Below the pieces are notes generated by a model. The model ran no database searches and had not been told where the DNA came from. It saw nothing but the letters and a program-made list of their open reading frames with translations. Made by a program: the position numbers and the translations under genes. This document shows positions 4,884 to 33,267 of a DNA stretch of 64,000 nucleotides, in pieces. This DNA is from a virus (taxonomy: Duplodnaviria; Heunggongvirae; Uroviricota; Caudoviricetes): the IMG/VR virus record IMGVR_UViG_3300044984_003074. One strand, 5' to 3'. Each line of letters opens with the position of its first letter. The first letter of the stretch is position 1.

Positions 4884-5166
4884 TAATTTTCATTATTATA
4901 TGTGTTTATGTTCTACAAAAAAATAAGACATATATCTCAAATTGTCAAAATTTTTTTAAAACAACAAGATATTTGTATATTATATGATAATAGTAAAAAT
5001 TAATAGTGGGGATAATATTGAAAGAGCTTTAAAGACTCTTAAGTCCAAAGTCATTAAGACAAAACAAAACCAAAAATTAAATCTGAGAAAAGAGTATACA
5101 AAAAAATCTGTACTTAAAAGAGCACAGATTTTAAAGGCAAAATATATTCAAAGTAAAAAAGATAAT

Positions 5167-5880
5167 TTAGATTGATGATTCAAGATTTTTTAATCTTAAA
5201 AAATTCATTTGGTCAAACTTTTCGTCTTTTAATTTATTAATTGTTTCAGAAATTCTTGTTTTAATTTCATTTTCTTCTTCTTTTTCTAATAATGTTTGAA
5301 GTTTAGAAATCGCACTTTCACGAATAACTTCAAACTTATCTTCCAAAACTTTAGTGTCTTCAGAAACAAGTTGTATAAATTCTTTTTTAGAATTTTCATC
5401 TAAGTTATCCAAATAATTTCTTAATGTTTGGTTAGCGATACTAACCATAGATTTTATGGGAATATTAATGGATTCTTTAACCGTATTAGGTTTAGAGGTA
5501 AGGATAGAAACTATATTTTTTTTAGATTCAATTCTTTCTATTAAGTTTAACTTTTGAGTATAAACTAATGTATCAATATCGTTATAACGGTTTTTAACCG
5601 ATTCTGATATTGTTCTTGGTAATTTAATTGACGGTAAAACTTTTTGTAATAAAGAAATTCCTTCATCCAAAAATTCTTTGGCATCAGACTCACTTAACCC
5701 TTGAGGTGTACTCAATTGGTTGTATAGGTCATAAGCTTTTGACATAGATTTATTACTCAAAACATTATGTTTGAATTCTCTCAATGTCTTCTTGAAATCC
5801 TTCTCATTTTTGTAGGATTCTAGCAGATTATTCTCAATAAAGGATTTAATTTTTCCAAAAGTCATTTTACTCATTTTCAA
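5167..5880 (-). CDS. hypothetical protein (possible prohead core/scaffold accessory)
   Basis: ORF 237 aa, coiled-coil-rich, immediately downstream of portal. Confidence 0.3.
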   Translation of the reverse strand: MKMSKMTFGKIKSFIENNLLESYKNEKDFKKTLREFKHNVLSNKSMSKAYDLYNQLSTPQGLSESDAKEFLDEGISLLQKVLPSIKLPRTISESVKNRYNDIDTLVYTQKLNLIERIESKKNIVSILTSKPNTVKESINIPIKSMVSIANQTLRNYLDNLDENSKKEFIQLVSEDTKVLEDKFEVIRESAISKLQTLLEKEEENEIKTRISETINKLKDEKFDQMNFLRLKNLESSI

Positions 5881-13525: not shown

Positions 13526-14887
13526 TTAACTATTTAATCCTTGGAAACCTCCAATAGTGATTGCGTTTAATTGTGCTACAGGTATTCCCTCATTATTTGT
13601 AAATATCGGGTGAGGTGCAATTGCTCCTGCAGGCGCCGTTCCACCACTAAAATCACCTAAAATTTCAATAGTGTATGCGTATTGTTGGTCAGCCGAGAAT
13701 CCTGTAAACCAATATGTTGGTGTTGGTGAAGGAGTCACTGCAGGTGTATTTGCAGGTGTTCCTGTTGGTGTATTTGTTGGAGTTTTTGTTGGTGTTGCAG
13801 TATTAGTAGATGTTACATTAGGAGTACCGCTTTTTGTTGGTGTATTCGTTGGGGTCGTAGTTTGAGTTGGTGTATTTGTTGGAGTTTTAGTTTGAGTTGG
13901 TGTATTTGTCGGTGTTTTAGTTTGAGTTGGTGTATTTGTAGGTGTTTTAGTTTGAGTTTGTGTAGGTGTTTGAGTTTGAGTTTGAGTTTGAGTTTGCGTA
14001 GGTGTTTGAGTTTGCGTTTGAGTTTGAGTAGGCGTATTTGTAGGTGTTTTAGTTTGTGTTTGAGTAGGTGTTGAAGTTACTGTTGAAGTAACTGATGGTG
14101 TCGGTGTATTACTTGCAGTATTTGTTGGTGTTGCTGTTGGTGTTGGTGTCGGTAATGGACATGACCCTATTGAAACATAATAACCATCACCATTAATAAT
14201 TGTTATTTCTGTAGAACAAACCACCAATGTTTGATAAGCTTGTACTTGTACTGTATTTATAAATCCGTCACAGTCTTTATAAATAAAAGTTGTATTACCA
14301 GTTCCACCATATAAGTTATATGTTTTACAAACATTAGGAGTGTTACTTGGTGTTACCGATATAGTTGGTGTATTACTTGGTGTTGCAGTATTAGTTGCAG
14401 TGTTAGTTGGTGTTGCAGTATTAGTTGCAGTGTTAGTTGGAGTTGGTGTTTTAGTTTGTGTAGGAGTACTAGTTGATGTGTTAGTTGGTGTTTGAGTATT
14501 TGTTGGTGTTACTGTTGGTGTCGGAGTTGCGGTATTTGTTGTAGTATTTGTTGGAGTTGCAGTATTTGTTGTAGTATTTGTTGGAGTTGCAGTATTAGTA
14601 GTTGTAACAGTAGGCGTTGCAGTATTAGTAGTTGTAACGGTAGGTGTTGGTGTAACAACCGCTTGACAAGTCACACAATCACCATAATCAATTGATATAG
14701 TTAATACAGTGTCAGTACCTGTGTTAGGTTCTGCGTTGTCAATGATATCATAACATCCAGGTGTTGTACCACCAGTAAATGTTAAATAATAATTTCCATT
14801 AACTGCAGGTAACGATGAGCTATCAAAATCAATTAATTTTGCTGGTCCGCCTGTACAAGCGCCTATAAGATATGTAACTAAAGCCAT
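13526..14887 (-). CDS. PT-repeat (mucin-like) protein with two Cys-containing globular domains
   Basis: 453 aa; ~250 aa of TPTNTAT/TQTQTPT repeats separating N- and mid-domains with conserved Cys; possible capsid decoration/adhesin. Confidence 0.45.
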   Translation of the reverse strand: MALVTYLIGACTGGPAKLIDFDSSSLPAVNGNYYLTFTGGTTPGCYDIIDNAEPNTGTDTVLTISIDYGDCVTCQAVVTPTPTVTTTNTATPTVTTTNTATPTNTTTNTATPTNTTTNTATPTPTVTPTNTQTPTNTSTSTPTQTKTPTPTNTATNTATPTNTATNTATPSNTPTISVTPSNTPNVCKTYNLYGGTGNTTFIYKDCDGFINTVQVQAYQTLVVCSTEITIINGDGYYVSIGSCPLPTPTPTATPTNTASNTPTPSVTSTVTSTPTQTQTKTPTNTPTQTQTQTQTPTQTQTQTQTQTPTQTQTKTPTNTPTQTKTPTNTPTQTKTPTNTPTQTTTPTNTPTKSGTPNVTSTNTATPTKTPTNTPTGTPANTPAVTPSPTPTYWFTGFSADQQYAYTIEILGDFSGGTAPAGAIAPHPIFTNNEGIPVAQLNAITIGGFQGLNS

Positions 14888-14942: not shown

Positions 14943-15674
14943 TTAGTCTTCCATTTTTCTCTCAATAGAAAGTTCTTTATCTACGACATTATTTGCCTTA
15001 TCAAATAGTTTTTGAATATGACCAGACCTTCGTAAAAATTTAAAAACTAAATTTTCATAAGACAATTCTCCTTCTTTTTCAAGACCCGATTGTCTATATT
15101 CTTTTAATTTGTTTTTAATATCATCTAAAGTTTTTTGTTCATCAGACTCAAGAGCTTTATCAATTTTTTCAGTCCAATTTTTAATTTTATTTGATAACAA
15201 ATCTTTATCTATCTCTATTTTAAATTGTTTTGGCTTGGTAACCCATTCATTATTCATTATTGAATAAACTCCTGACGCGTAGTGAGATTCTTCGGAATCT
15301 TGTGCGTATAATTCAACATCATACCCAAATATTTTAATGTTATGCTTATCGTTGAAAACTTGTTTTTTTAAATTAAATAATTCTTTGTATAATTCAGAAT
15401 CATCTTCGTATTGTTGTATGTCAACAATGATATGAAGGTCAAAGTCTGAAAATTCAGACCAATTAAAGTTCGCCAAAGAACCTGTAAGTACAACATCTTC
15501 AACAAATACGTCATCTCCAAGATATTCAATAAATTCATCGGCAATACGTTCAAGAGCCTTTCTAACCTTAGGAACCATAGTTGCTTTGTCAGGGTCATTG
15601 GAATTTTCCCAAACTTTTGGGTTTAAAGTCTTCTTAATTGAAAAACTATTAAGTATTTGTTGGAAGTTGCTCAT
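14943..15674 (-). CDS. Pol-beta superfamily nucleotidyltransferase
   Basis: 243 aa; LTGSLANFNWSEFSDFDLHIIV = hG[GS]x10DhD motif, downstream acidic DVE. Confidence 0.5.
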   Translation of the reverse strand: MSNFQQILNSFSIKKTLNPKVWENSNDPDKATMVPKVRKALERIADEFIEYLGDDVFVEDVVLTGSLANFNWSEFSDFDLHIIVDIQQYEDDSELYKELFNLKKQVFNDKHNIKIFGYDVELYAQDSEESHYASGVYSIMNNEWVTKPKQFKIEIDKDLLSNKIKNWTEKIDKALESDEQKTLDDIKNKLKEYRQSGLEKEGELSYENLVFKFLRRSGHIQKLFDKANNVVDKELSIERKMED

Positions 15675-15686: not shown

Positions 15687-15929
15687 CTACAGTTTCTTAT
15701 ACTTGTACTTTTTTGATATATCTGTTGTAAAATGTTTTCCTTGAGACTCGGATTTTCTAAATGCAGTGTAGACTTGATGTGGTACAGACTCATATTCATA
15801 TCTCAGCCCATTGTTAAATTCTACGATTAAACTACTTGTTTCAGTATCGTATTCTGTTTTTCTAATGTTTGACGATTTGATTTCATTAATAATCTTCGTC
15901 CCTTTGATTTCCTCTTTTGTAATTGCCAT
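15687..15929 (-). CDS. KTSC domain protein
   Basis: 80 aa; NGLRYEYESVPHQVYTAFRKSESQGKHFTTDI matches KTSC fold pattern. Confidence 0.45.
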   Translation of the reverse strand: MAITKEEIKGTKIINEIKSSNIRKTEYDTETSSLIVEFNNGLRYEYESVPHQVYTAFRKSESQGKHFTTDISKKYKYKKL

Positions 15930-16261
15930 TTTTTAGTGGTGTTATTTCATCTATTTTAGATAGTATTGGTTTTAAATATTCATTAAATTCTTCTCCATCT
16001 ATTTCTAAACCATAATCTTTTACTTGTTGAAGTAAATCTTTTAATTCATTACTAAAATTTTGATGAAGAGACATTAATTGAGGTGAATAATATGGAGGTT
16101 TTTCTAAATCCCTTTCACTCCATCCTTCCGATTGAAAATATCGTCTCATCTTAACATATATTTCAATTATTCGTTGTAGCCCTACACTACTATTTAAAAA
16201 ATTTTCAAATGGTTTCATTTTAATAAATATAAAACCCTCACCGTTTGGTGAGGGTTTAACA

Positions 16262-16648
16262 TTACTTTTTCAAGTTTTTCAACTTGTCCCTAAGTTCAAT
16301 TGACTTTTCAAAGTTTTGTTCTTTAATAGATTCTCTCAATTCTAACTCAAGTTTATCAATAACCTTCTTGTTTGATTCTAATTTTTTAATTGAATCTCTA
16401 AGTTTAACGGCAGATTCAAAATCTTCATTTTCAATTGCGACATTTAATTGAGATTGCAATTTCTCAAATTCATTTGATGGTCTTGATTCTTTAGGGTCAT
16501 TACTCCAATAATGCGTAGTGACTTTAATTGAACCGTCTTCGGATGTTCTGGTTTTTGTTTTCCATTCACCGGTGTTTAGGTTTAATTGTTCAAACATATC
16601 GTCAAATGATTTGAACAGGTCGTTAAAGTTTTTTCTGTTTCCAAACAT
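16262..16648 (-). CDS. small protein with two UVR (UvrB/UvrC-type) motifs; candidate Clp adaptor
   Basis: 128 aa; EDFESAVKLRDSIKKLE and NFEKSIELRDKLKNLKK; divergent from ClpC-like gene. Confidence 0.45.
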   Translation of the reverse strand: MFGNRKNFNDLFKSFDDMFEQLNLNTGEWKTKTRTSEDGSIKVTTHYWSNDPKESRPSNEFEKLQSQLNVAIENEDFESAVKLRDSIKKLESNKKVIDKLELELRESIKEQNFEKSIELRDKLKNLKK

Positions 16649-16816
16649 AATTTATTTTTTTTATTTAATTTTATTACTTACCTTTGTGGTATTCAAATAA
16701 TATACCAAATTAAATAATATGTCAATATGTCATACCAAAAATATTTATCTGACAATTTGACAATTAATTTGGATAAGTATAATATTTGTTATTACTTTGT
16801 AAAAAATTAGAAATAT

Positions 16817-18829
16817 ATGAACGACTTAATGGATGACGACGACAAAACAATGAGTAAAAAACAATCTCAATCAGAAAGCAGTACACCTGTTTTAGATAAC
16901 TTTAGTAGAGATTTGAATAGACTTGCTGAGGAAGGTAAATTAGACCCCGTAATTGGTCGTGACAAAGAGATTTTAAGAATTGCACAAATCTTATCTCGTA
17001 GAAAGAAAAATAACCCTATTATCATTGGAGAACCTGGTTGTGGTAAAACCGCTTTGGTTGAGGGATTGGCAATTAAAATTGTTACCGGAGAATGTCCGAG
17101 AAACTTGGTTGATAAAAGAATTGTAAACTTAGATTTAACTTCAGTTGTTGCAGGTACAAAGTATCGTGGTCAATTTGAAGAAAGAATGAAAGTGATTATT
17201 GAAGAACTTCGTGATAACCCAAACATTATTGTGTTTATTGATGAGATTCACACATTAGTAGGTTCTGGTAATTCTTCAGGGTCAATGGATGGTTCAAACA
17301 TTTTCAAACCCGCATTATCTCGTGGTGAACTTCAATGTATTGGTGCAACTACCCTTGATGAGTTCCGTAAGAATATTGAGAAAGACGGAGCATTGGAAAG
17401 AAGATTCCAAAAAGTAATTGTTGAACCATCATCTGTTGTTGAGACAATTGAAATCCTTAAAAATGTTCGTGACAAGTATGAGTCATTTCATAAAGTCATT
17501 TATAACGATGAGGTTATTGAAGCTTGTGTTAAATTGGCGGATAGATATATCACAGATAGAGAATTTCCTGATAAAGCATTTGATATCTTGGATGAGGTTG
17601 GTGCTCGTATGCAAACCGAGCTTAAGGTTCCTGAAATAATTGAGAAATTAAAAAAGGATGCTTCGGAGATTAAACAACAAAAAATTGATGTTGTTAAAAA
17701 ACAAAACTACGAACAGGCGGCCCAATTAAGGGACAAAGAGAAAAAAGTTTTGGCCAAATTGGAATCTGAAAAACTTAAGTTTGAAGAGTCTATGTCAGAA
17801 AATAAACAAAAAGTTAATTTGGAAGATGTTTATGATGTGGTTTCTAATATGGTTAAGATTCCTGTAAGCAAAATGAATGTTGATGATACTAAGGCTTTAT
17901 TAAACTTGGATAAAGAGTTGATAGGTAAAGTGATTGGTCAGGACGCAGCGGTTATTAAAATTGCAAAATCTATTAAAAGAAACCGTTTGGGTATCAAAGA
18001 CCCAAATCGTCCAATAGGTTCATTTGTGTTCTTAGGGTCAACAGGTGTTGGTAAAACTCACTTGGCCAAACAATTAGCTAAAGAAATGTTTGGCTCTGAG
18101 GATTCTCTTATTCGTGTGGATATGTCTGAGTACCAAGAGAAACACAGTATTTCTAAATTGGTTGGAGCACCTCCAGGATATGTTGGTTATGAAGAAGGTG
18201 GATTATTAACTGAAAAAGTTAAGAACAGACCTTACTCTGTTATCTTATTTGATGAGGTAGAAAAAGCACACAAAGATGTGTTTACAGTTTTACTTCAAAT
18301 CTTGGATGATGGTCATGTGACTGATAGTTTAGGTCGTAAGATTAATTTTAAAAATACTTTGATTATCCTAACTTCAAATTTGGGTGTTAAGAAATTACAA
18401 GATTTTGGTACAGGTATTGGATTTTCTAATAACCCTTATTCAAATGAAGAGGCAAAGAAACAAGTATTGATGAAAGAAATGAAAAACTTTTTCTCACCTG
18501 AATTTATTAACCGTATTGACGATACTATCGTATTTAACTCTTTGACTATTGATGATATCAAAAAAATCACAGAGATTGAGTTAAAAAAATTAACTGCTCG
18601 TCTTAGTGATATGAAGTACAAAGTAACTTATGATTCAACATTGGTTGATTACCTATCCAAAATTGGATTTGATGAATTATACGGGGCAAGACCTTTGAAA
18701 AGAGCAATTCAAGATAAGGTTGAGGATTTATTATCAGAAGAAGTTCTTCTTGGTAAAATGATTGAAGGTAAATCTTATGTTATCAAGGTAGATAATGATG
18801 AGGTTAAAATTCAGAAAAAAGGTAGATAA
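16817..18829 (+). CDS. ClpC/ClpE-type AAA+ unfoldase lacking N-domain, with UVR linker and ClpP-docking loop
   Basis: 670 aa; two Walker A (GEPGCGKT, GSTGVGKT), UVR motif YEQAAQLRDKEKKVLAKLE between D1 and D2, GTGIGF loop, sensor-2 GARPLKR. Confidence 0.8.
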   Translation: MNDLMDDDDKTMSKKQSQSESSTPVLDNFSRDLNRLAEEGKLDPVIGRDKEILRIAQILSRRKKNNPIIIGEPGCGKTALVEGLAIKIVTGECPRNLVDKRIVNLDLTSVVAGTKYRGQFEERMKVIIEELRDNPNIIVFIDEIHTLVGSGNSSGSMDGSNIFKPALSRGELQCIGATTLDEFRKNIEKDGALERRFQKVIVEPSSVVETIEILKNVRDKYESFHKVIYNDEVIEACVKLADRYITDREFPDKAFDILDEVGARMQTELKVPEIIEKLKKDASEIKQQKIDVVKKQNYEQAAQLRDKEKKVLAKLESEKLKFEESMSENKQKVNLEDVYDVVSNMVKIPVSKMNVDDTKALLNLDKELIGKVIGQDAAVIKIAKSIKRNRLGIKDPNRPIGSFVFLGSTGVGKTHLAKQLAKEMFGSEDSLIRVDMSEYQEKHSISKLVGAPPGYVGYEEGGLLTEKVKNRPYSVILFDEVEKAHKDVFTVLLQILDDGHVTDSLGRKINFKNTLIILTSNLGVKKLQDFGTGIGFSNNPYSNEEAKKQVLMKEMKNFFSPEFINRIDDTIVFNSLTIDDIKKITEIELKKLTARLSDMKYKVTYDSTLVDYLSKIGFDELYGARPLKRAIQDKVEDLLSEEVLLGKMIEGKSYVIKVDNDEVKIQKKGR

Positions 18830-18836
18830 TAAAAAA

Positions 18837-18863
18837 GGGGGAATTTAATTCCCCCTTTTTTTA
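18837..18863 (+). terminator. rho-independent terminator (GGGGGAATTTAATTCCCCC + T-run)
   Basis: perfect hairpin right after ClpC-like stop. Confidence 0.6.
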
Positions 18864-18874: not shown

Positions 18875-19543
18875 ATGAAAGATTTGATTAAAAAAATTAT
18901 TAAAGAAACATTTGAAAATAATGAGATAAAATCTCAATCAAATCTTGATAGATTAATGAATCATTTTAAATCCCAATTTCCTGACGATTTAAAATCTAAA
19001 GTACCAATAATTGGTAAATTCATTTCAGATTATATCCAAAAAAATAATATTAATGTTAAATTTCTTAATTCTTGTTCAACAGGGTTTTCAGGTGTTAGAA
19101 CTAAGGACCAAGTTATAATTTGTTCTCCAACACAAATGTCAACTATTGGGGATTTTCTTTACACAATTTTTCACGAAATTAGACATGAGCATCAAGTTCG
19201 TGATTTAAAAATGTTAAACCCATTAACTGAATTTGACTTGGAAGATTTTGAGAATCTTGCCGACCAATATTGGGAGATGGAATTAGATGCCGACCAATTT
19301 GCAAAAAATATGGTTGCAAAAATTGTGATTAAATTAGAAATTCCAATAGATATTGCAAAAAATTTATTTTCACTTTCCCTATTTATTGAAAAATATCCTT
19401 TAATGTCTAAAATGGTCAGAGGTCATTTACAACAAATTGTTAACGGAATTAAAGACATAAAAAAATCGGGAGGAGAATATGAAGATATTCAAGACCACCC
19501 GATGGTTAAACGATATATTGATAAGTTAGAAAATTTTATCTAA
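18875..19543 (+). CDS. hypothetical protein with HExxH (HEIRH) motif
   Basis: 222 aa; possible zinc metallopeptidase. Confidence 0.25.
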   Translation: MKDLIKKIIKETFENNEIKSQSNLDRLMNHFKSQFPDDLKSKVPIIGKFISDYIQKNNINVKFLNSCSTGFSGVRTKDQVIICSPTQMSTIGDFLYTIFHEIRHEHQVRDLKMLNPLTEFDLEDFENLADQYWEMELDADQFAKNMVAKIVIKLEIPIDIAKNLFSLSLFIEKYPLMSKMVRGHLQQIVNGIKDIKKSGGEYEDIQDHPMVKRYIDKLENFI

Positions 19544-20378
19544 CAAATCTACTCATTGGGTCATATTGAACTGACTTTTTATAGTGTAATCTATAACCTA
19601 ATCCCTCAATCATTTTTCTACCCATTTCAATTCCATTGAATACATCCTCAATAACAACATACTCGTTTGGTGTGTGGTAATTGTAATATCCAATTGAGAA
19701 GTTAATACAAGAAAAATCAAATTTGTTTCTCAAGGCATAAACATCGGTATATGGATGGACCATGTATTGCATGTCTTCTTTAACCATTCCCTCAGTTAAT
19801 ACTTGGTCAATTTTTTCAAAGAATTCTGTTTCTCTATCAAATAAAATTTGACCAAAACATTTTTCAGTAATCATCCAATTCTCAGGAGCGTCAAATTGAA
19901 TCCCATAACCAACATTGGTAAAGAACTCAGGGTCTGCTTTTTTAGAACCATGACAACCAGTTTCTTCAGATACAAAGAATGCCGCTTTCAAATACGGTAA
20001 TTCTTTAAGTAATGTTAAACAAGCAAAAACTCCGCATTTATCATCACCACCAATCCCTGTAGGAAGACCGTGTAGATTGTATGCTTTAAGTGAATCTTTA
20101 ACTTCACCTTGAGCATTTAATAATTGTTCTTCATGAACAATGATTGTATCTAAATCATGAACTGTGTCTGTGTGGGAAATCACGCATGGGAAAAAGAAAT
20201 CTTCAGGTAATTCCGAATTTTCTTTTTTTGTCGCATAAACATTTTTGTTTTCATCAACATAATGTTCAATATTGTTTTCAGTTAACCAATTAACCAAAAA
20301 TTCAACCATAAGGTCTTCTTTGTATGTTTTACTAGGAACGCTAAGTACTTCCTTTAGTAAGTCTATATTTTGTGTCAT
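19536..20378 (-). CDS. M20/M28/M42-like zinc peptidase family protein
   Basis: 280 aa; ISHTDTVH, GIGGDDKCGV, FFVSEETGCHGS co-catalytic metal motifs. Confidence 0.4.
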   Translation of the reverse strand: MTQNIDLLKEVLSVPSKTYKEDLMVEFLVNWLTENNIEHYVDENKNVYATKKENSELPEDFFFPCVISHTDTVHDLDTIIVHEEQLLNAQGEVKDSLKAYNLHGLPTGIGGDDKCGVFACLTLLKELPYLKAAFFVSEETGCHGSKKADPEFFTNVGYGIQFDAPENWMITEKCFGQILFDRETEFFEKIDQVLTEGMVKEDMQYMVHPYTDVYALRNKFDFSCINFSIGYYNYHTPNEYVVIEDVFNGIEMGRKMIEGLGYRLHYKKSVQYDPMSRFVR

Positions 20379-20398: not shown

Positions 20399-21544
20399 TT
20401 AGATTTCTTCCAAATTAAATAATGAAGGTTGATATAATAAATGATTAAAATTTTCCTCACTTAATTTAACTTTTTTAAATCCAAGAGGTGTTTGTAATTC
20501 AACAATGATTTTCATATCATTTCTATCAAATTCTTTAATCTGAAATCTGTATTTTTTGTCTTTAGGTAAGTCGTACCAACTATTTAATTTGAATTTAGAA
20601 GTTATACGAGTTCTAAAATCTAAATATTCTTTTATTCCACCATTAATCTCATCACTGTTTGACTCCAAACTTTCTAACATTTCATCAAATTGTCTACCCA
20701 CATAGTTATTGAAAGATTTTGAATCAAAATACTCAGGGTCTTGATATTCATAACTGTTTTCATACCACCCACCAAATTGACCACCTCCACCGTTATTATC
20801 ACTAGCCCTTTTAAGTACACTAGCAACTAATTCTTTGGCATCACCATTGTATAAATTTGATTGTAAAGCAGCAGCATACAAATCCGACAATTTTATATCA
20901 ATCCTATCAAATCCACTATTAATGTTTGCTCCAACACTTAATAAAACATCATCAAATTCTTCTTTAATTACTTTATTGGCAACAGCATTCATTTCACTTT
21001 CTTTTTCCATTTCAAAATCACCAAGGATGTAGTCAATTTCTTTTGGAAACACATCTAATAAAATTTGAGATAATGCAATTTTAAAATCTTCATTAGTTAA
21101 ATCAAATTCTTTACCCGATAAAAGAATTGAAGAGAGGTCTTTAAGTTTATCTACATTTTCTTCATCTAACTCACCGTACACACCATACCCATCTTTAAAA
21201 TCTTGCTCTATTTGATATGAGTCCATAAAGTCATAACCGTCATATCCATTTAATGCTCTCATAAACCATATGTCATCATCACTCATCTCAAGTAAATTTA
21301 AAAGTTCTTCTTCATTTTTAAACTCTATAGTTAACATTGTTTGACCTAAAGGTGTTTTGGGTTCAATATAGTATATGGAATCATCAATGTCATATAAATC
21401 ATCTTTAGTGATTTTACCTTTAGCATAATTTCTTAAGGCAATAACAAAATTGTCGTTTGGTCCATTTGACTCATCATCAGATTCTTTAACAATTCTTTTA
21501 ATAACCTGAATTAATTCAGACTCACTTAATTTAATTTTACCCAT
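20399..21544 (-). CDS. hypothetical protein
   Basis: 381 aa ORF. Confidence 0.3.
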   Translation of the reverse strand: MGKIKLSESELIQVIKRIVKESDDESNGPNDNFVIALRNYAKGKITKDDLYDIDDSIYYIEPKTPLGQTMLTIEFKNEEELLNLLEMSDDDIWFMRALNGYDGYDFMDSYQIEQDFKDGYGVYGELDEENVDKLKDLSSILLSGKEFDLTNEDFKIALSQILLDVFPKEIDYILGDFEMEKESEMNAVANKVIKEEFDDVLLSVGANINSGFDRIDIKLSDLYAAALQSNLYNGDAKELVASVLKRASDNNGGGGQFGGWYENSYEYQDPEYFDSKSFNNYVGRQFDEMLESLESNSDEINGGIKEYLDFRTRITSKFKLNSWYDLPKDKKYRFQIKEFDRNDMKIIVELQTPLGFKKVKLSEENFNHLLYQPSLFNLEEI

Positions 21545-21622: not shown

Positions 21623-22018
21623 GGGGATGAAATGGAATTGACTGGCATTACTACTTATTTGGGGCACGTAGTCAAACATCATCTATGACTTAAATCTGTG
21701 ATGGTAAAATTCAATTGGCAATACTTTTGCTAAGCTTTCTGCTTTAGGTTTGACTAGAGAAGAAGCTGTTGTTACTGCATAGTTCAGGGAACAACAAGGG
21801 GTCGGTTAGAACATTCAACCTAGCAACAGAAGTTCAGTATACGGGTGACAGGTTAGAGCTCGTTTAAAATAACTCTAAGACCAAGTTGTTTGCAGGTAGG
21901 TTTCTCACATACATCAGACCTGATATTTTGGAACATTGAGAACTAATGTTATCCTAAACGTGTAGTCCTGAACAATTAGGGTGAACAACACTCGGCTTCG
22001 AAGCCGACATCTCCACCA
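21623..22018 (+). ncRNA. ssrA: tmRNA-like (ssrA) gene with encoded CCA
   Basis: 5' GGGGAUGAAAUGGAAUUGACUGG resembles tmRNA 5' consensus; 3' ...UCGGCUUCGAAGCCGACAUCUCCACCA gives T-arm plus 7-bp acceptor pairing with 5' end incl. G3:U70 (Ala identity); ~396 nt; strong terminator follows. Confidence 0.55.
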
Positions 22019-22357: not shown

Positions 22358-23059
22358 ATGTTGAAGTGTTATAAGCATATTGGGATAGATAATAATGATT
22401 GGTGCTGGGAATGCCAAGAATTAACTGACGCTATTAGATTTGAATCAATTAAATTATTAAATAAAATGAAAACAAATAAGGTAATATTTTTGGATAATGA
22501 CGGGGTAATCTGTCTCTCCAATAATTGGGGTGGTCGAGCCAAAAAATGGAAGAAGTATAAGAAACTTAATCCTGAAGCAACTAGCGACACTGTAGCACCC
22601 GTTGAAGTACGATTTGATGATTTTGATAAGAAAGCCGTTAAAGTATTAAATGATGTCTTAGAATTAACAGGTGCTGAACTTGTTGTTTCTTCTGATTGGA
22701 GATTACACGCAACATTGGAAGAAATTGGTGAATATTACCTGTCAAAAGGAATCTCAAAGGCACCAATAGCATTCACCAAACGATACATCGGTTGTGATAA
22801 ACCTGATGAGTTTGTATGGAGACGAAGTACAATGCATGAACAACAAAGATGTATTGAGGTTAGACAATATCTAACAGACCATCCCGAAATCACACATTGG
22901 GCTTGTATTGACGATTTACAGTTAGGAGGGAAAGATTCTTATGGTTATGAACAAGTATGGGGATTATCTAACTTTGTTCATACACCAAGAGAAAATGAAG
23001 GAATCAAACAATCTGGTGTTAAAGAAAAATTATTGGAATATTTAACTAATAATGATTGA
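22358..23059 (+). CDS. HAD-superfamily hydrolase
   Basis: 233 aa; motif I VIFLDNDGVI, motif IV WACIDDL. Confidence 0.45.
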   Translation: MLKCYKHIGIDNNDWCWECQELTDAIRFESIKLLNKMKTNKVIFLDNDGVICLSNNWGGRAKKWKKYKKLNPEATSDTVAPVEVRFDDFDKKAVKVLNDVLELTGAELVVSSDWRLHATLEEIGEYYLSKGISKAPIAFTKRYIGCDKPDEFVWRRSTMHEQQRCIEVRQYLTDHPEITHWACIDDLQLGGKDSYGYEQVWGLSNFVHTPRENEGIKQSGVKEKLLEYLTNND

Positions 23060-25917: not shown

Positions 25918-25959
25918 GAACTATACTGATATGTCAATTTTTCTTACATATTTTTTCTG

Positions 25960-26044
25960 CGGAAAATGAGAGACTCGAACTCTCGCATCATTTTATCGAT
26001 GTACGGTTTAGCAAACCGCTGCATTACCACTCTGCCAACCTTCC
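25960..26044 (-). tRNA. tRNA-Ser (anticodon GCU), type II
   Basis: GGAAGGTTGGCAGAGTGG...loop TTGCTAA, long variable arm, T-arm GAGAGTTCGAGTCTCTC. Confidence 0.7.
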
Positions 26045-26049
26045 TTATA

Positions 26050-26394
26050 TTATATTAGGTGTAGTAAGATATATGACAATTTATATCCTGTAAAAGCGCC
26101 CAATGCGGATGGTATTGGGAATACAATTAATTTACCTAAATCAGTTACGTATTTTGGTCTATTTACAATTTTACCCATAAAAAAGTAATATATTAAATAA
26201 CCCATTAAAACCGCAATATCTGTACGTGTTGCAATAAAAACTACTAAAGTGGCCCCTAAGAACCCAAAAGTAAAATTATCCCTTACACCTTCCCAAACTT
26301 CTTTAGTTGATGCACTTTTATATTCTTTTACAATCTTTTTGAATTGGGCTTTATGCCCCTTTTTCTTTTTTTCTATTATTTCTGTTGTTTCCAT
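26050..26394 (-). CDS. hypothetical membrane protein
   Basis: 114 aa, two TM segments. Confidence 0.3.
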   Translation of the reverse strand: METTEIIEKKKKGHKAQFKKIVKEYKSASTKEVWEGVRDNFTFGFLGATLVVFIATRTDIAVLMGYLIYYFFMGKIVNRPKYVTDLGKLIVFPIPSALGAFTGYKLSYILLHLI

Positions 26395-26395
26395 G

Positions 26396-26470
26396 TTGGA
26401 ATAGATGGACTCGAACCATCGACTTTCACCGTATCAGGATGACACTCTAACCAACTGAGTTATATTCCAT
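26396..26470 (-). tRNA. tRNA-Ile (anticodon GAU)
   Basis: D-arm CTCAGTTGGTTAGAG, loop CTGATAC, T-arm GATGGTTCGAGTCCATC. Confidence 0.65.
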
Positions 26471-26561
26471 TATTATTTTTACAAAGATAGTTAATTTATC
26501 CCATAAAAAAAATCCCCCTGACTTTTAATCAGAGGGATTTAGTATTTAAATCTCTTCTATA

Positions 26562-27140
26562 TTAAAAGTATGTTTGTTCAAAGTATAATACTTGGAACTT
26601 ATCTTTACTATCAATTAAACTCAATGCATTAATTAAGTCGTTATACTCAACTACGGCACCTTTTTGAATTTTTCTAAATTTAGTTAAAACATCAAATGTT
26701 GTAATATCATCAGAAAATACTGTTTGTGAATCTTTGTTATATGCTTTCATTAATGCCAATTCCATTTCATAAGCTCCATTAATAATTTCTTCCAAACTAT
26801 TGAAAGTATGACTAATTTTTGCTGATGGGATTTCAGGGATAATATTGAAATCGGTCATATATTGTTGTAAAATCTCAGAATGACCTAATTCATCTTTTGC
26901 CTCATTTTCAAAAAACGCTGCCGCTTTTTTGTAGTTCATATCCGCACACCAGTTAGTTGCCGCTCTGTAATAATAATGTGCAGTATATTCGTCTTTGATT
27001 CTATCAGTTAAGATTTTAATTGTCTTATCTGATAACGAGTATAATTTAGGTGACTTTGTTAAACCTGGTTTGTTTTCCGCCTCATTCAAGTGCATCACTT
27101 TAAATAATTGTTCCTTTGTTAATGTTAATTTCTTTTCCAT
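26562..27140 (-). CDS. ferritin-like protein (start at internal Met; ORF-track N-terminus is read-through of tRNA-His)
   Basis: EYTAHYYYRAA ... NEAKDELGHSEIL ... ferritin ExxH/di-iron motifs; 5' part of listed ORF 26562..27287 overlaps tRNA gene. Confidence 0.5.
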   Translation of the reverse strand: MEKKLTLTKEQLFKVMHLNEAENKPGLTKSPKLYSLSDKTIKILTDRIKDEYTAHYYYRAATNWCADMNYKKAAAFFENEAKDELGHSEILQQYMTDFNIIPEIPSAKISHTFNSLEEIINGAYEMELALMKAYNKDSQTVFSDDITTFDVLTKFRKIQKGAVVEYNDLINALSLIDSKDKFQVLYFEQTYF

Positions 27141-27176
27141 ACTAATAAATAGTCGGTATAGATGAAAAATATTAGG

Positions 27177-27249
27177 GTGACTAACGGGAATCGAACCCGT
27201 GACAACTTGGACCACAACCAAGCGCTCTACCAACTGAGCTATAGCCACC
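27177..27249 (-). tRNA. tRNA-His (anticodon GUG)
   Basis: GGTGGCTATAGCTCAGTTGGTAGAGC, loop TTGTGGT, discriminator C. Confidence 0.75.
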
Positions 27250-27254
27250 ATATG

Positions 27255-27324
27255 TTGCGTGTTTGGGTTTCGAACCCAATTGACCATCCTTATGAGAGAT
27301 AGTTCTTTTCCTCTAAGTCACGCA
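27255..27324 (-). tRNA. tRNA with CAU anticodon (Met/fMet/Ile2), short atypical D-arm
   Basis: acceptor TGCGTGA/ACACGCA, AC stem TATCT/GGATG loop CTCATAA, T-arm TTGGGTTCGAAACCCAA. Confidence 0.45.
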
Positions 27325-27330
27325 GTTTAG

Positions 27331-27403
27331 AGGTTCTATTAGGATTCGAACCTAAACTCCGAATTCCGTAGATTCGTGTGCTAATCCGTTACACCATAAA
27401 ACC
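27331..27403 (-). tRNA. tRNA-Arg (anticodon ACG)
   Basis: AC stem CGAAT/ATTCG loop CTACGGA; T-arm TTAGGTTCGAATCCTAA. Confidence 0.7.
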
Positions 27404-27485
27404 CTAATTACCGATTATTGTCCCATTTAACAATTATCATCAAAACAATCCACAAAATTAAAAACCACATACTTTATTTATTTAG

Positions 27486-27556
27486 TTACCCGACCAAGAC
27501 TCGAACTTGGAACGACTGTACCAAAAACAGTTGTGTTACCATTACACCATCGGGCA
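27486..27556 (-). tRNA. tRNA-Gln (anticodon UUG)
   Basis: AC stem ACTGT/ACAGT loop TTTTGGT; T-arm CCAAGTTCGAGTCTTGG. Confidence 0.7.
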
Positions 27557-27562
27557 ATACTG

Positions 27563-27636
27563 TGGACCATCCAGGACTCGAACCTGGGACCTTCTCGTTA
27601 TGAGCGAGCTACTCTAACCGACTGAGTTAAAGGTCC
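27563..27636 (-). tRNA. tRNA-Met (anticodon CAU)
   Basis: D-arm CTCAGTCGGTTAGAG, loop CTCATAA, T-arm CCAGGTTCGAGTCCTGG. Confidence 0.65.
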
Positions 27637-27786
27637 AAAATTGACTACTACCTGACTCCTTTCGAACTTTGCAGGCTCGTATCATTCAATAATAGTAGTC
27701 CAAGGCGTTACGCACCCATCTGATAACTTTACTTCTCTTGAGTCCGGATAAGCGCTTACCAACTCAGGGGTTGTTTCCTTGTTTGT

Positions 27787-27866
27787 GGGAGTGGAGGGAT
27801 TCGAACCCCCAATGTCGTAGACCACAGATTTACAGTCTGCTAAGCGACCAATTGCTCAACACTCCC
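27787..27866 (-). tRNA. tRNA-Tyr (anticodon GUA), long variable arm
   Basis: GGGAGTGTTGAGCAATTGG..., loop CTGTAAA, T-arm TGGGGGTTCGAATCCCTCC. Confidence 0.7.
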
Positions 27867-28168
27867 AATTATAAAACAGACAATGAGGATTCTCCGATAT
27901 TTCAGTCTTAGGGGACTAGACGGGCATCATACCCGTGTTTACCCTCGGCGGTCTCTTGGTTTGGTTGATTACTCCGAACCTCACCCCTACACTACCACTG
28001 ACGTAAGTTATAGGTCTGTCTTAATTCTTTTAGGAAAACAGAAGATGGTTGCGTGGACATCTGTTTTTACGATTAGCGTTACTTAGGTGAATACCTCCCA
28101 ACTCCGATTGTACTAGCCGGCATTCACTCTCGAACTATTAGTACAATCATTCCCCAATCAACCTTTTG
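27867..28168 (-). ncRNA. GC-rich structured non-tRNA segment inside tRNA array (stable RNA or intron-like)
   Basis: ~300 nt at ~50% GC vs ~33% genome; multiple hairpins (CGGGCATCATACCCG; GTGAAT/ATTCAC); no convincing ORF (listed 67-aa ORF rejected). Confidence 0.35.
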
Positions 28169-28249
28169 CACGCTTGGAGGGATTCGAACCCCCACCAACG
28201 GTGTTGGAGACCGTGATGCTACCGTTGCACTACAAACGTATTTATTTAC
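28169..28249 (-). tRNA. tRNA-Trp (anticodon CCA)
   Basis: AC stem ACGGT/ACCGT loop CTCCAAC; T-arm GGGGGTTCGAATCCCTC. Confidence 0.7.
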
Positions 28250-28253
28250 TGCT

Positions 28254-28297
28254 CAAATTTAAGAGTATTTACTGCTCAAATTTAAGATTTTTGAGGT
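28254..28297. repeat. 2x tandem direct repeat of 21-23 bp (ATTTACTGCTCAAATTTAAGA) between tRNA-Trp and tRNA-Cys
   Basis: copies at 28254-28274 and 28277-28297. Confidence 0.8.
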
Positions 28298-28303
28298 CGG
28301 TAC

Positions 28304-28376
28304 AGGATTTGAACCTGTGTGAATAGTTTTGCAGACTACCGCCTAAGCCACTCGGCCAACCGACCCTATCTAATTT
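28304..28376 (-). tRNA. tRNA-Cys (anticodon GCA)
   Basis: GGTCGGTTGGCCGAGTGGCTTAGGC, loop CTGCAAA, T-arm ACAGGTTCAAATCCTGT. Confidence 0.7.
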
Positions 28377-28746
28377 AAAGAACTTCAGTTAGTATTCTCC
28401 ATTCTTTTAATGTGTTTCCTTCAAAGGTAACCTCAACCGGTTTCCCTTTTAATTTATCCACAGAGTCAACCTTAGCTTCCTTCAGTAAAGTCGAAACATA
28501 TCTCATAATCTCAGAATACCATCCATCCCTATCTTCTTCAGACCATTGGGTGTGTTCCGTCCATTTTATTTGTTCTGAATCCCAATTGGCTCTTGAATCA
28601 CCAACACCCCAACTTCCACCACTTAATGTGACGTGAAGACCTAACATTGCTCCTTGATATCCACCAAGACCAAAACTTACCGACTCAATTTTCCCTAATT
28701 TCTTTTCCATATTCTTTAATTTTAATATCCTTAAGGGCTTCCTCAA
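28375..28746 (-). CDS. hypothetical protein
   Basis: 123 aa ORF (start may be internal Met at ~28710). Confidence 0.3.
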   Translation of the reverse strand: MRKPLRILKLKNMEKKLGKIESVSFGLGGYQGAMLGLHVTLSGGSWGVGDSRANWDSEQIKWTEHTQWSEEDRDGWYSEIMRYVSTLLKEAKVDSVDKLKGKPVEVTFEGNTLKEWRILTEVL

Positions 28747-28845
28747 TTTGTTTTCCTAACCATTCTTTCCACTCGTCAAAGGTAAACTTTGAATTTGGAT
28801 TCTCCAAGAGAAAGTTTTTATATTGTGTTTCTAATGTTGCCATAA

Positions 28846-29445
28846 TTAATCTAAACTATTTGGGTAATATAATAATGTTGGGTTCTTCTTTTGGATATCA
28901 ATTTCAGGATATCTATCACTAAATGATTTGACATCAAATCGAGATGTAATTAAATGTCTACCATTTTTGGTAGGTATTACTTTTTCAACCTTAAATCCAA
29001 TTGGTCTAAGGTCTTTAATAAAATCGGCGACTTCATATAAAAAATCAGGGTCAGTAGTATCAATATCAACAATCCATCTTTTTTCTTTAGTCTTTATTTG
29101 ACCAACAACTGAATCAAATAACCCTTTTTGGTTTTGAACCCCATTCTTAATTCTTTCCGCCAAATTTGACAACATATCCAAAGAAACATCTTTATGATTT
29201 TGTTTTTGAATATGAATATAAGCTCTTGCTTTAAACATTTCACAAAGTTGTTTTACCTCATCGTACCTTCTTTCCAAATGGTCAATTGAATCAATACAAT
29301 ATGTTTTAATTGTTCTAACCGATTGATGATTATCTCTTTCATTTTCAGGTTGGTCTTTCTTACGTTTAAACACATACAACATATAGAAATCACCCTTTTC
29401 TTCAAAGTTTAACAACGGTTTTATTATCTCTAAATTATCTATCAT
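28846..29445 (-). CDS. hypothetical protein
   Basis: 199 aa ORF. Confidence 0.3.
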   Translation of the reverse strand: MIDNLEIIKPLLNFEEKGDFYMLYVFKRKKDQPENERDNHQSVRTIKTYCIDSIDHLERRYDEVKQLCEMFKARAYIHIQKQNHKDVSLDMLSNLAERIKNGVQNQKGLFDSVVGQIKTKEKRWIVDIDTTDPDFLYEVADFIKDLRPIGFKVEKVIPTKNGRHLITSRFDVKSFSDRYPEIDIQKKNPTLLYYPNSLD

Positions 29446-29998
29446 ATCTTTTTATTTTTTTATACTGTAAATTTGAAATAATTAGTTCCATCAAAATCAA
29501 ATTCCGCAATTACATCATTAGTTCCCCAAACAAACCTAATATAAGAACTAATGTTGGAATAAAGATTACCTGAATTTCCAGGAAATTGGATTATAATTTT
29601 TCTCAATTTTCCAACAACAATGTTATTAATTCCAGGTTCCCCATAAATGTTTTTAACTTCAGTGGTAATTCTAACCCCACTATAATAAATTGGGTTTTGA
29701 TGTTTTAATATTTTTCGGAAATAATCAATCTCTTTCATTTTAATATCCTATTTCTTTTTTAACTTCCCATTGTTTATCGATAGGAATTCTTTCAATTCTT
29801 TCAACAGGTACAAACCCGTCAAACCCTTTATCTTTAACATCCTCAAAATGTTCTATGGTATCCAATTGGAACCCGAACTTATATCGGATGTATTGGAACT
29901 TTTCTCCGTCCCAATATGCCATGTGGTTGTTCCTACAAAATCCATTGTACCAACCTTCAACCATTTCATTTTTTGGTATCATAATTTCTATTTTTTTG

Positions 29999-30072
29999 TG
30001 ACCCCTCCGAGACTCGAACTCGGGACTCCTTCATTAAAAGTGAAGTGCTCTAGCCAACTGAGCTAAGAGGTC
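29999..30072 (-). tRNA. tRNA-Lys (anticodon UUU)
   Basis: GACCTCTTAGCTCAGTTGGCTAGAGC, loop CTTTTAA, T-arm CCGAGTTCGAGTCTCGG. Confidence 0.75.
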
Positions 30073-30476
30073 TTTTTTTCGTTCAATCATTTCTGACTGT
30101 CCCCAATACCGAATTTCAGCGGCAACCCACTTACGTGAGGGGTTAGAACTTGTGTGTTAACTTACTCCTGTTAATGGTACACTAACCAACCGACTTAGAC
30201 TCAAGTAATCGGCTCAGGTCCCCATGGTTGTAAAACCACTTCTCATCGTTCGGGAGCAAACTAGTCGTATACTACTCGACTCGTGTAGTCGACACGGGAC
30301 TCGAACCCGCACAAGGCAACCTTACAACTCCATAGTCAACACAAGTGTCTGTGACTATTGGTCTTGGGGGTTTGGGACCTTCCCTCATTACACAGTCGAC
30401 TAACAACCCCACTTCACCAGGTTAATGGACTGGCTGCCATATGGGAGTGGGGGTTTCCCGTTAATTCGGGACTCCG
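30073..30476 (-). ncRNA. ~400-nt GC-rich structured segment including a 118-nt tRNA-like minihelix (8-bp acceptor around a GTCGAC palindrome + canonical T-arm, no canonical anticodon arm)
   Basis: minihelix approx 30286-30403: 5' TAGTCGAC ... GCGGGTTCGAGTCCCGT GTCGACTA 3'; remaining sequence forms many hairpins; no ORF support. Confidence 0.35.
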
Positions 30477-30549
30477 TGGTAACGGTCAGAATCGAACTGA
30501 CGACACCTTGTTCTTCAAACAAGTGCTCTACCGACTGAGCTACGTTACC
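30477..30549 (-). tRNA. tRNA-Phe (anticodon GAA)
   Basis: GGTAACGTAGCTCAGTCGGTAGAGC, loop TTGAAGA, T-arm GTCAGTTCGATTCTGAC. Confidence 0.75.
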
Positions 30550-30697
30550 AAATAAAGATAATGATGGAGTACCCGTCTCGCTCCAATCTTAACTGCTTTC
30601 CTGAGTTTTATGAGGCCTCGGCAGAAAGGGTGATGAACTATTGCTCCATTCGGAATTGTCGACATTCCATTGAATGGTTAGAACCATTATCTTAGTA

Positions 30698-30770
30698 GTT
30701 CCTGTAGGATTCGAACCTACGACTGCTTGCATGTAAGGCAAGAACTCTTCCACTGAGCTAAGGAACTGTA
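30698..30770 (-). tRNA. tRNA-Val (anticodon UAC)
   Basis: GTTCCTTAGCTCAGTGGAAGAGT, loop CTTACAT, T-arm GTAGGTTCGAATCCTAC. Confidence 0.7.
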
Positions 30771-30774
30771 TTGT

Positions 30775-30846
30775 AGCCCTGCCGGGAGTCGAACCCGACT
30801 TTCCAGGATGAAAACCTGGCGACCTAACCGATAGTCGACAGGGCCA
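30775..30846 (-). tRNA. tRNA-Glu (anticodon UUC)
   Basis: AC stem CCAGG/CCTGG loop TTTTCAT; T-arm TCGGGTTCGACTCCCGG. Confidence 0.65.
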
Positions 30847-33251: not shown

Positions 33252-33267
33252 AAACTATAAATATCCT

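Follow-up and report, generated by a model that had tools for sequence, protein, structure and literature searches.

A ClpC-type ATPase without an N-domain in jumbo phages of Bacteroidota, and its optional double-UVR neighbour

In the unfoldase ClpC, activity is repressed by the N-domain and the middle domain (M-domain); the loss of this control is lethal, and several antibiotics exploit it. How might a ClpC-type enzyme be controlled and supplied with substrates if it has no N-domain at all? This question is raised by a stretch of 64,000 nucleotides (nt) from a virus of the Caudoviricetes (IMG/VR record IMGVR_UViG_3300044984_003074; hereafter the window), in which such an ATPase is encoded divergently from a small protein with two UVR motifs, here called UVR2. 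A first-pass annotation had read the small protein as a possible dedicated adaptor or regulator of the ATPase, and had suggested that the ATPase would form a complete phage-encoded protease with a ClpP, which might join a gene resembling transfer-messenger RNA (tmRNA) in a phage route of tag degradation or might remodel host proteins. Both open reading frames (ORFs) were found where it had placed them. Based on the present data, we favour an account in which the phage makes a ClpCP protease that needs no adaptor and is gated by its M-domain, with UVR2 as a possible modulator, and we would put the probability of this combined account at roughly 0.45. The two genes in question are:

16817-18829, + strand: ClpC-type double-ring AAA+ unfoldase of 670 residues without an N-domain (Pfam, PDB alignment and PHROG)
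16262-16648, − strand: UVR2, a 128-residue double-UVR protein (Pfam UVR, 52 bits, E 4.8e-14, in two stretches; cut-off 21.5)

The ATPase was classified through the following parts of its sequence:

16817-16882, + strand: N-terminal tail MNDLMDDDDKTMSKKQSQSESS, acidic and then basic, in the place of Clp_N; aligns to the ClpC linker 147-159
17600-17851, + strand: short coiled-coil M-domain (about residues 262-345), with the UVR core QNYEQAAQLRD at 17702-17734
18413-18424, + strand: GIGF ClpP-docking loop in D2 (residues 533-536), aligned with the AGF loop of Staphylococcus aureus ClpC

Its best match in the PDB is S. aureus ClpC (6em8, 747 bits), with which residues 12-664 pair over positions 147-802 in one continuous stretch; Bacillus subtilis ClpC comes next (149-803). 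ClpE and ClpL score lower (606 and 524 bits), and the alignments to ClpB and ClpA fall into two parts, owing to their different middle regions. The single-stretch alignment to ClpC therefore marks the protein as ClpC-type, with a short M-domain and a beginning at the linker between N-domain and D1. Pfam recognises AAA (residues 68-189), AAA_lid_9 (207-307), AAA_2 (398-569, 230.7 bits) and ClpB_D2-small (576-654), and scores UVR at residues 283-311 with 20.9 bits, slightly below the cut-off of 21.5. PHROG 4871 ('ATP-dependent protease') is matched with 791.8 bits over profile positions 157-756 only. The motifs GEPGCGKT, KYRG, VFIDE, GSTGVGKT, GYVG, ILFDE and GARPL are all present, and the Walker A and B motifs, pore loops, arginine fingers, sensor 2 and a G[IV]GF loop are kept across 84 relatives. 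In these respects the first-pass annotation was borne out: both AAA+ modules, the UVR-bearing M-domain and the docking loop are there, and the Walker motifs and the loop are intact on alignment. The corresponding loop in cellular Bacteroidota ClpCs reads V/I/L/M-GF. Equivalog cut-offs of NCBIfam are not reached (ClpB TIGR03346, 823.3 vs 1232.1; ClpA TIGR02639, 717.9 vs 993.15), and no ClpC-specific model is among the NCBIfam matches listed for the ATPase.

The N-domain is indeed missing, as had been claimed, the alignment to S. aureus ClpC beginning at residue 147. Only about 40 residues precede D1, and the 168 nt upstream of the gene are intergenic. Of 34 Pfam matches, the 25 best do not include Clp_N, and the precomputed Pfam list of an identical protein has no Clp_N either. 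Relatives of the ATPase are encoded on more than 590 IMG/VR contigs; the counts out of 80 loci given here rest on the best 80 of these, and ClpP relatives were likewise compared as the best 80 matches. The tail MNDLMDDDDK...KK...TPVLDNF is common to all 80 IMG/VR relatives of the ATPase, which supports its start codon. With three defining features of ClpC present and Clp_N missing, the protein is best called a ClpC-derived, N-domain-less variant.

The shortened form is widespread. All 80 IMG/VR relatives are about 664-690 residues long and 68-90% identical, and identical or near-identical ATPases occur on metagenomic contigs of up to 330 kb. The huge phages LR756502 (642 kb), LR745206 (635 kb) and LR756508 (484 kb), which have been assigned to Bacteroidota hosts (PMC7162821), encode N-less versions too, of 657-707 residues. 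Its occurrence both in the clade of the window and in distant huge phages indicates that the loss is old and stable in this host range and is not an assembly artefact. On the cellular side (one genome per prokaryotic species), the 80 closest homologs listed are all ClpC-type, at 56-59% identity, and lie on contigs labelled Bacteroidota almost throughout. Nearly all of these ORFs have 839-930 residues and are matched by the phage protein from about residue 160-250 onwards, which means that cellular ClpCs keep an N-terminal extension, of about 165-200 residues, that the phage protein is without. No UVR-only protein and no small heat shock protein (sHSP) was found next to any of these 80 cellular homologs. 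The ATPase thus derives from a Bacteroidota ClpC, and the loss of the N-domain is phage-specific and clade-wide.

What the remaining M-domain may do can be judged from S. aureus ClpC, in which M-domains contact one another head to head through F436, R443 and D444 and hold an inactive resting state; MecA binds through the N-domain and breaks these contacts (PMC5699869). An engineered S. aureus ClpC without the N-domain (Delta-N), starting at residue 147, assembles into planar hexamers and into ring dimers joined head to head, and makes long rods with bound ClpP, yet is proteolytically inactive (PMC12583610), and it is inactive unless the F436, R443 or D444 contacts are lost (PMC5699869, PMC12583610). 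The Delta-N F436A variant degrades SsrA-tagged green fluorescent protein (GFP-SsrA) without an adaptor at the speed of the MecA-activated wild type, and is the most toxic mutant (PMC12583610). In the phage ATPase, Y298, R305 and D306 align with these three contact residues; a tyrosine also holds the F436 position in ClpE (PMC5699869). The phage M-domain, KKQNYEQAAQLRDKEKK, is nearly identical in all relatives, whatever the gene next to the ATPase. The core of the host-type Bacteroidota ClpC M-domain, QKYEEAAKLRD, is near-identical to that of the phage, with Y in 58 of 73 proteins and F in the other 15. Since the contact residues are kept and the engineered Delta-N ClpC is inactive, the phage ATPase is probably still gated by the pairing of its M-domains.

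A peptidase partner is encoded in the same window, apart from a head protease:

37069-37749, + strand: ClpP peptidase of 226 residues (Pfam CLP_protease, 190 bits)
3690-4406, head gene block: T4-type Peptidase_S77 prohead protease (81.9 bits)

Compared with solved ClpPs, the catalytic triad is intact (Ser in AASMG at about 127, His in MLHQ at about 152, Asp in TRD at about 201). The best NCBIfam model is PRK14514, with 242 bits vs a cut-off of 361, and TIGR00493 gives 189.4 vs 308.6; to judge from its sequence, the protein is a true but divergent ClpP, in agreement with the first reading. NCBIfam head-maturation models score far below the ClpP models, and given the separate S77 enzyme this ClpP is not the head-maturation protease. 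At least 11 contigs appear in both the best-80 ATPase list and the best-80 ClpP list, and these include loci with UVR2, loci with an sHSP and loci with an undetermined neighbour; ClpP is also present in LR745206 and LR756502. We consider it likely, on these features, that the ATPase and the phage ClpP form a protease.

A possible source of substrates is the tmRNA, for which the window holds:

21623-22018, + strand: tmRNA gene, full-length from GGGG... to ...UCCACCA (Rfam RF00023, 47.9 bits vs a gathering threshold of 47)
21717-21782, + strand: tag ORF encoding the 21 residues GNTFAKLSALGLTREEAVVTA and a stop codon
22022-22049: terminator-like hairpin 3' of the tmRNA

Although ARAGORN does not call it, the gene is a real tmRNA, as the resemblance noted earlier had suggested, and 63 of the 80 related loci, with all states of the slot next to the ATPase among them, carry it at a corresponding position. 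In relatives the encoded tag peptide is preserved despite numerous synonymous and conservative substitutions (as in GNVLNKMAAIGLIREDAAVVA and GETFAKLEAVGLLAAEEVTVA) and nearly always ends in V-x-A. Bacteroidota tmRNA tags usually start with G and end in ALAA. As to the tmRNA partner SmpB, none was found among the ORFs of the window, and homologs were found in four relatives (E 1e-22 to 1e-24, with an E. coli SmpB sequence as the query):

L014:13615-14049: SmpB homolog
L075:12807-13256, − strand: SmpB homolog
L064:13629-14066, − strand: SmpB homolog
L066:13330-13767, − strand: SmpB homolog

In L014 and L075, the two in which positions were compared, SmpB adjoins the tmRNA. The joint occurrence of ATPase, ClpP and tmRNA in relatives thus upheld one half of the expected co-conservation; the other half, which concerned UVR2, did not hold. 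A route of tag degradation would be compatible with the published work on engineered N-domain-less ClpC.

The UVR2 protein is defined by its C-terminal half:

16265-16477, − strand: two UVR repeats (residues 58-93 and 94-128) with the cores EDFESAVKLRD and QNFEKSIELRD

The two motifs that had been read in this protein were thus recovered by Pfam. An AlphaFold2 model (predicted local distance difference test, 73.7) places helices at residues 8-26, 60-73, 77-109 and 113-127 and strands at 28-35 and 42-49, which gives an aromatic N-terminal helix, a beta-hairpin and then three long helices holding both UVR motifs. The pattern aromatic-x6-Arg-Asp occurs twice (F77/R84/D85 and F113/R120/D121), and these F, R and D residues are invariant or nearly so in the family. 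A word-indexed search collected 325 family members at E <= 0.001, and 171 representatives among 1.84 billion were matched at E <= 1e-10, all of them small proteins; the family is real but narrow. Foldseek of the model against the PDB gave no significant match (best E 0.11, all generic helices). In profile comparison with the PDB, McsA scores 27 bits (8wtb, residues 141-183), UvrB 24 and the ClpC M-domain 20-21, and NCBIfam lists UvrB and UvrC as well. The UVR2 hidden Markov model (HMM) also matches the M-domain of the ATPase itself in the IMG/VR relatives, with 24.9-42.2 bits.

The labels 'McsA' and 'UvrB' that JGI pipelines attach to homologs of UVR2 were rejected as misannotation. UVR2 is without any cysteine and so cannot carry the zinc-finger motifs of McsA, and the McsA model NF053706 reaches 38.4 bits vs a cut-off of 210, in the UVR part only. 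No kinase came up in family searches of the window and the neighbour loci, which included no search aimed at McsB. We would therefore place UVR2 in the UVR-motif class and in no narrower one.

The question of whether UVR2 is the dedicated partner of the ATPase can be addressed by comparing the slot upstream of the ATPase, which in the window is bounded by one further gene:

15687-15929: KTSC-domain protein gene, upstream of the UVR gene

Searched with the HMM of the UVR2 family, 39 of the 80 loci have a divergent UVR2 adjacent to the ATPase. In 19 others, the same slot holds, in the same orientation, an Hsp20/alpha-crystallin sHSP of about 130 residues (Pfam HSP20, 52.8 bits), and in 22 neither was found, two of which are cut at the start of the ATPase, leaving 20 informative loci. 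UVR2 and the sHSP were found together in none of the 80. The sHSP genes, whose products carry a C-terminal RISLL motif, lie for example at:

L005:7402-7803, − strand: sHSP
L007:7436-7831: sHSP
L018:7404-7874: sHSP
L083:7481-7828: sHSP

Both occupants share the same conserved control region and the same start position. On a neighbour-joining tree of the ATPase the partner states are interleaved, which requires several replacements. Unrelated ORFs, too, are found between the KTSC gene and the ATPase. Conversely, of 77 loci anchored on UVR2, 76 have a divergent ATPase start no more than 400 nt away, and in the remaining one the distance is 853 nt. Thus UVR2 is an optional accessory and not a fixed partner, and in the loci examined it is never found apart from the ATPase. 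Since sister phages keep the ATPase with an sHSP or with nothing, the ATPase cannot depend on UVR2; since UVR2, when present, is always divergent and adjacent, a functional link stays plausible, if optional.

These counts bear directly on a strict form of the proposal with which we began, namely that UVR2 is a dedicated, obligatory adaptor that replaces the N-domain adaptors and forms one fixed tag-and-degrade pathway with ATPase, ClpP and tmRNA. The presence of all four genes in the window, and the constant adjacency of UVR2 to the ATPase, would suit it. However, UVR2 is missing from 41 of 80 loci that keep the ATPase (39 of them informative), ClpP and tmRNA occur with all partner states, and nothing in the ATPase varies with UVR2; in this strict form the proposal was not upheld and is now highly improbable.

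The sHSP found in 19 relatives raises a different alternative, in which the ATPase works mainly as a ClpP-independent unfoldase or disaggregase and, with an sHSP or UVR2, keeps phage proteins soluble during massive late synthesis, while ClpP serves, for example, host ClpX. Cooperation of sHSPs with Hsp100 proteins is established knowledge, and the clpP gene lies 18 kb from that of the ATPase, in a separate unit. However, the G[IV]GF docking loop is kept throughout the clade, the M-domain is of the short ClpC type and not of the long, DnaK-recruiting ClpB type, and ClpP co-occurs with the ATPase, so that we give this alternative a slim chance.

UVR2 and the sHSP also begin alike (M-x-x-N-x-x-F/L-N-D-L/I-F). 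The idea that UVR2 is a remodelled sHSP was rejected as unproven: hhalign gave a probability of 7%, and an HMM of the sHSP N-terminus scores UVR2 proteins like unrelated ORFs (E 0.1-0.6).

The arrangement of the two divergent genes is described by the following elements:

16649-16816: divergent control region of 168 nt, with two opposed TTGACA-17-TAnnAT promoter-like sites in tandem 8-nt repeats
16725-16697, − strand: promoter-like site toward UVR2, TTGACA-17-TATTAT, 11/12
16757-16785, + strand: promoter-like site toward the ATPase, TTGACA-17-TAATAT, 10/12
16720-16732, − strand: tandem repeat of 8-nt period, TGACATAT twice, holding the TTGACA box of the divergent site
16750-16762, in opposite orientation to the TGACATAT pair: tandem repeat TGTCAAAT/TGTCAGAT, holding a TTGACA box
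16232-16257, − strand: terminator-like hairpin directly 3' of the UVR2 stop, with an 11-bp stem, 6 GC pairs and a T tail
18831-18861, + strand: terminator-like hairpin directly 3' of the ATPase stop, with a 14-bp stem and a T tail

In a promoter scan, the two outward-facing intergenic sites were the best of the region. Promoter-like matches as a class are not enriched there and Bacteroidota use another type of promoter, so the promoter assignment should be read as a lead. Terminator-like sites number 12 in the region vs 2.4 expected. The intergenic repeats, whose TTGACA boxes coincide with the -35 hexamers of the promoter-like sites, are conserved in UVR-type and sHSP-type relatives alike, as is the control region as a whole. 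The repeat TGWCANATTGWCA was also considered as a regulon motif of the entire window and was rejected, with 6 matches vs 2.9 expected; its only exact copies in the window are the two in this intergenic region. The ATPase and UVR2 form a compact divergent module, consisting of two single-gene units around one conserved control region.

The variable slot may also be taken as an insertion hotspot in which adjacency has no functional meaning, UVR2 being, for instance, a decoy for the host UvrB-UvrC contact that dampens nucleotide excision repair of phage DNA. The range of occupants (UVR2, sHSP, unrelated ORFs or nothing), their interleaving on the ATPase tree, the UvrB and UvrC entries in NCBIfam and the second repeat of UVR2, which matches the C-terminal domain of UvrB with 24 bits as well as it matches anything else, are all in line with this. 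It is nevertheless unlikely in our view, given that both occupants are Hsp100-related proteostasis proteins (an sHSP and a protein whose UVR motif resembles that of the ClpC M-domain) with the same control region and start position, and that UVR2 was not found away from the ATPase in the 77 loci anchored on it.

A further explanation keeps ClpC as the target of UVR2 and moves it to the host: UVR2 would pair with the M-domains of the full-length host enzyme and either deregulate host ClpCP or block host adaptors, in a takeover resembling that by Gp53 of phage SPO1. Modulation of host ClpC by phage proteins has precedents (PMC6873191), the core of the host M-domain is near-identical to the phage core, and the ATPase does not covary with UVR2. 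Against it stand the strict adjacency of UVR2 to the phage ATPase and their common control region; nothing else separates the host from the phage M-domain as a target. We regard this explanation, too, as improbable.

The account favoured here, that of a phage ClpCP gated by its own M-domain with UVR2 as modulator, has to be weighed against several observations that tell against it. About half of the relatives have no UVR2, yet their M-domain does not differ. In the ATPase alignment, even the column most informative on whether UVR2 is present reaches an accuracy of just 73%, which is what shared ancestry alone would give. The UVR motif is generic, and in the PDB comparison the UVR2 profile scores McsA and UvrB at least as high as ClpC M-domains. 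Because the M-domain of host ClpC is almost identical, the target of UVR2 could be the host enzyme, and part of the variability of the slot may reflect an insertion hotspot. Moreover, the natural ATPase may, unlike the engineered truncation, have evolved self-sufficient activity. The single step in which UVR2 acts on the M-domain of the phage ATPase is put forward tentatively, with the odds somewhat against it.

In the favoured account, ATPase hexamers would dock through GIGF on ClpP, either that of the phage or that of the host. Having no N-domain, the ATPase would need no adaptor of the MecA or McsB type and would take substrates directly at its pore, preferring unstructured ends and C-terminally tagged proteins, including those that carry the phage tmRNA tag. 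The phage would thereby own a private, broadly specific degradation machine that clears stalled and tagged products or recycles host protein. UVR2, optional and co-expressed, would pair with the M-domains by UVR-UVR contact and shift the enzyme from repressed ring dimers to active hexamers or, conversely, cap or restrain it, a direction that cannot be read from sequence; substrates or clients may also bind to the aromatic N-terminal region of UVR2. Elsewhere in the clade an sHSP, or nothing, would take its place. A bolder version, which we consider doubtful, is that the clade turned a repressed host ClpC into a weapon by deletion of the N-domain, and that UVR2 is a decoy that caps M-domains, dissolves ring dimers and so activates an adaptor-free ClpCP against pore-recognised substrates, including proteins with the 21-residue tag.

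The phage itself was identified from the remainder of the window, in which a portal protein, a large terminase, the S77 prohead protease and ribosomal protein bS21 establish its phage origin. The G+C content is about 32%, and a thymidylate synthase gene is present. The relevant features are:

4984-5175, + strand: bS21 ribosomal protein gene (Pfam, 35.8 bits), on the opposite strand within the prohead protease/portal/terminase block
25959-35435 (− strand) and 57490-57578 (+ strand): 23 tRNA genes, 22 of them in a single array with HNH endonuclease genes between
34668-35228: HNH endonuclease gene in the tRNA array
36153-36650: HNH endonuclease gene in the tRNA array
13526-14887, − strand: 453-residue protein consisting largely of TPT/NT-rich repeats, in or near the structural gene block
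1708-3312, − strand: extremely acidic 534-residue protein with DDDMLDEE repeats, in or near the structural gene block

Within the array, the tRNA-Gln at 31589-31669 has 81 nt and scores just 35.6 bits. Chen et al. (2022) described jumbo phages of freshwater Bacteroidota that encode bS21; their genomes span 293-331 kb, with 31.0-33.7% G+C and 5-25 tRNAs, and bS21 is encoded on the opposite strand inside a block of terminase, capsid, prohead protease and portal genes (PMC9723584). The placement of bS21, the G+C content and the tRNA number match, and on these grounds the window is assigned to that clade, which makes its source a jumbo phage of freshwater Bacteroidota. A phage collection in which the clade is not represented gave no match to the locus (megablast) or to the 128-residue protein (tblastn); the best matches of the ATPase there are huge phages, with just 50-57% identity.

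Several further genes lie near the ATPase or have related functions:

18875-19543, + strand: 222-residue ORF just past the ATPase hairpin, with the HExxH motif HEIRH at residues 100-104, kept in 61 of 61 homologs
19536-20378, − strand: 280-residue protein (PHROG 4191 'peptidase', 112 bits; weakly M42/M20 aminopeptidases)
20399-21544, − strand: ORF with a shared N-terminal module, which also occurs at L012:1469-1987, L026:6880-7383, L060:7426-7899, L064:5544-6563 and others
22358-23059, + strand: HAD_SAK_2 domain protein beside the tmRNA, of RNA-repair type
48327-49409, + strand: RNA ligase (PHROG 562), of RNA-repair type
14943-15674, − strand: nucleotidyltransferase of RNA-repair type, conserved adjoining the KTSC-domain protein gene

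The 222-residue ORF has no Pfam or PHROG match and may encode a small metallopeptidase-like protein. The 280-residue peptidase-like gene adjoins the ATPase in nearly all relatives, and with ClpP it may mark a neighbourhood of proteolysis genes. The module at the N-terminus of the third ORF, M(K)K-x-I-R-L-T-E-S-D-L-x-R-L-V-K-R-V-I-K-E, is shared by 24 otherwise unrelated ORFs of varied lengths, several of which sit as inserts in the stretch from the KTSC gene to the ATPase; it could be a targeting or recognition signal.

Part of this gene set was on record before. The annotation of ClpC and ClpP in the clade, phage ClpP and phage tmRNA genes are already known: the supplement of PMC9723584 labels genes of the clade ClpC/ClpA and ClpP, with no mention of a missing N-domain, a UVR protein or a tmRNA, and tmRNAs have been recorded in huge phages (PMC7162821). 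The literature searched holds no earlier description of a clade-wide natural Delta-N ClpC, of a UVR-only neighbour with a duplicated M-domain contact motif, of the alternation of UVR2 and sHSP, or of the unusual conserved tmRNA tag. A natural N-less ClpC in hundreds of phage genomes, with swappable small partners, offers a test of Hsp100 control by the M-domain only. The favoured account would show that large phages bring a private route of marking (tmRNA tag), unfolding (ClpC) and degrading (ClpP and peptidase-like neighbours), which bears on the takeover or recycling of the host proteome by jumbo phages. If UVR2 binds M-domains, ClpC-type proteases could be switched on or blocked with a simple protein tool. 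If UVR2 is in fact the decoy of a ClpC weapon, the toxic Delta-N/F436A mutant would have a natural viral counterpart here, and UVR2 would be the first UVR-only protein to regulate the M-domain of an Hsp100.

Among known systems, the cellular ClpCs of Bacteroidota, S. aureus and B. subtilis share with the phage ATPase the two AAA+ rings, the short UVR M-domain with its contact residues and the docking loop. The phage protein differs in being virus-encoded and in lacking Clp_N (about 145 to about 200 residues), in place of which it has a tail of 22 residues; MecA, McsB and phospho-arginine dock on Clp_N in the cellular enzymes, and the domain also stabilises their resting state. The engineered Delta-N ClpC (Carroni et al. 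2017, PMC5699869; PMC12583610) has the same boundary at residue 147 and keeps the M-domain and the ClpP loop, but it is a laboratory truncation, whereas the phage ATPase is a natural version under selection across a large clade. In ClpL and ClpE, the short M-domain resembles that of ClpC, carries a conserved aromatic residue and mediates ring dimers (PMC5699869, PMC12583610). They resemble the phage ATPase as Hsp100 proteins that work without Clp_N, and the PDB scores place the ATPase nearer to ClpC. ClpL is not known to have a ClpP-docking loop, and the N-domain of ClpE is a zinc finger; ClpB80 and ClpA65 are natural, N-terminally shortened isoforms that work without Clp_N.

For UVR2, McsA, the activator of the arginine kinase McsB, is the best PDB match of the profile and shares the UVR motif, but UVR2 has no cysteine, two UVR motifs and an unrelated N-terminal part. 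In M. tuberculosis, ClpS regulates ClpC1 through a middle domain surface and does not require the N-domain (PMC6274998), and plastid CLPC1 traps five UVR-domain proteins and the adaptor CLPF (PMC8889267). These recurrent plastid interactors (CLPF, EXE1/2 and UVR2-4) are likewise small or modular and have the UVR motif in common, CLPF being treated as an adaptor; they differ in carrying other domains (DUF151, YccV-like), the similarity is limited to the motif, and CLPC1 keeps its N-domain (PMC8889267). Finally, SPO1 Gp53 (PMC6873191) and the cyanophage NblA (PMC12695635) are small phage proteins that redirect a ClpC protease. Both act on the host enzyme and are without a UVR motif, whereas the phage of the window supplies both ATPase and peptidase itself.

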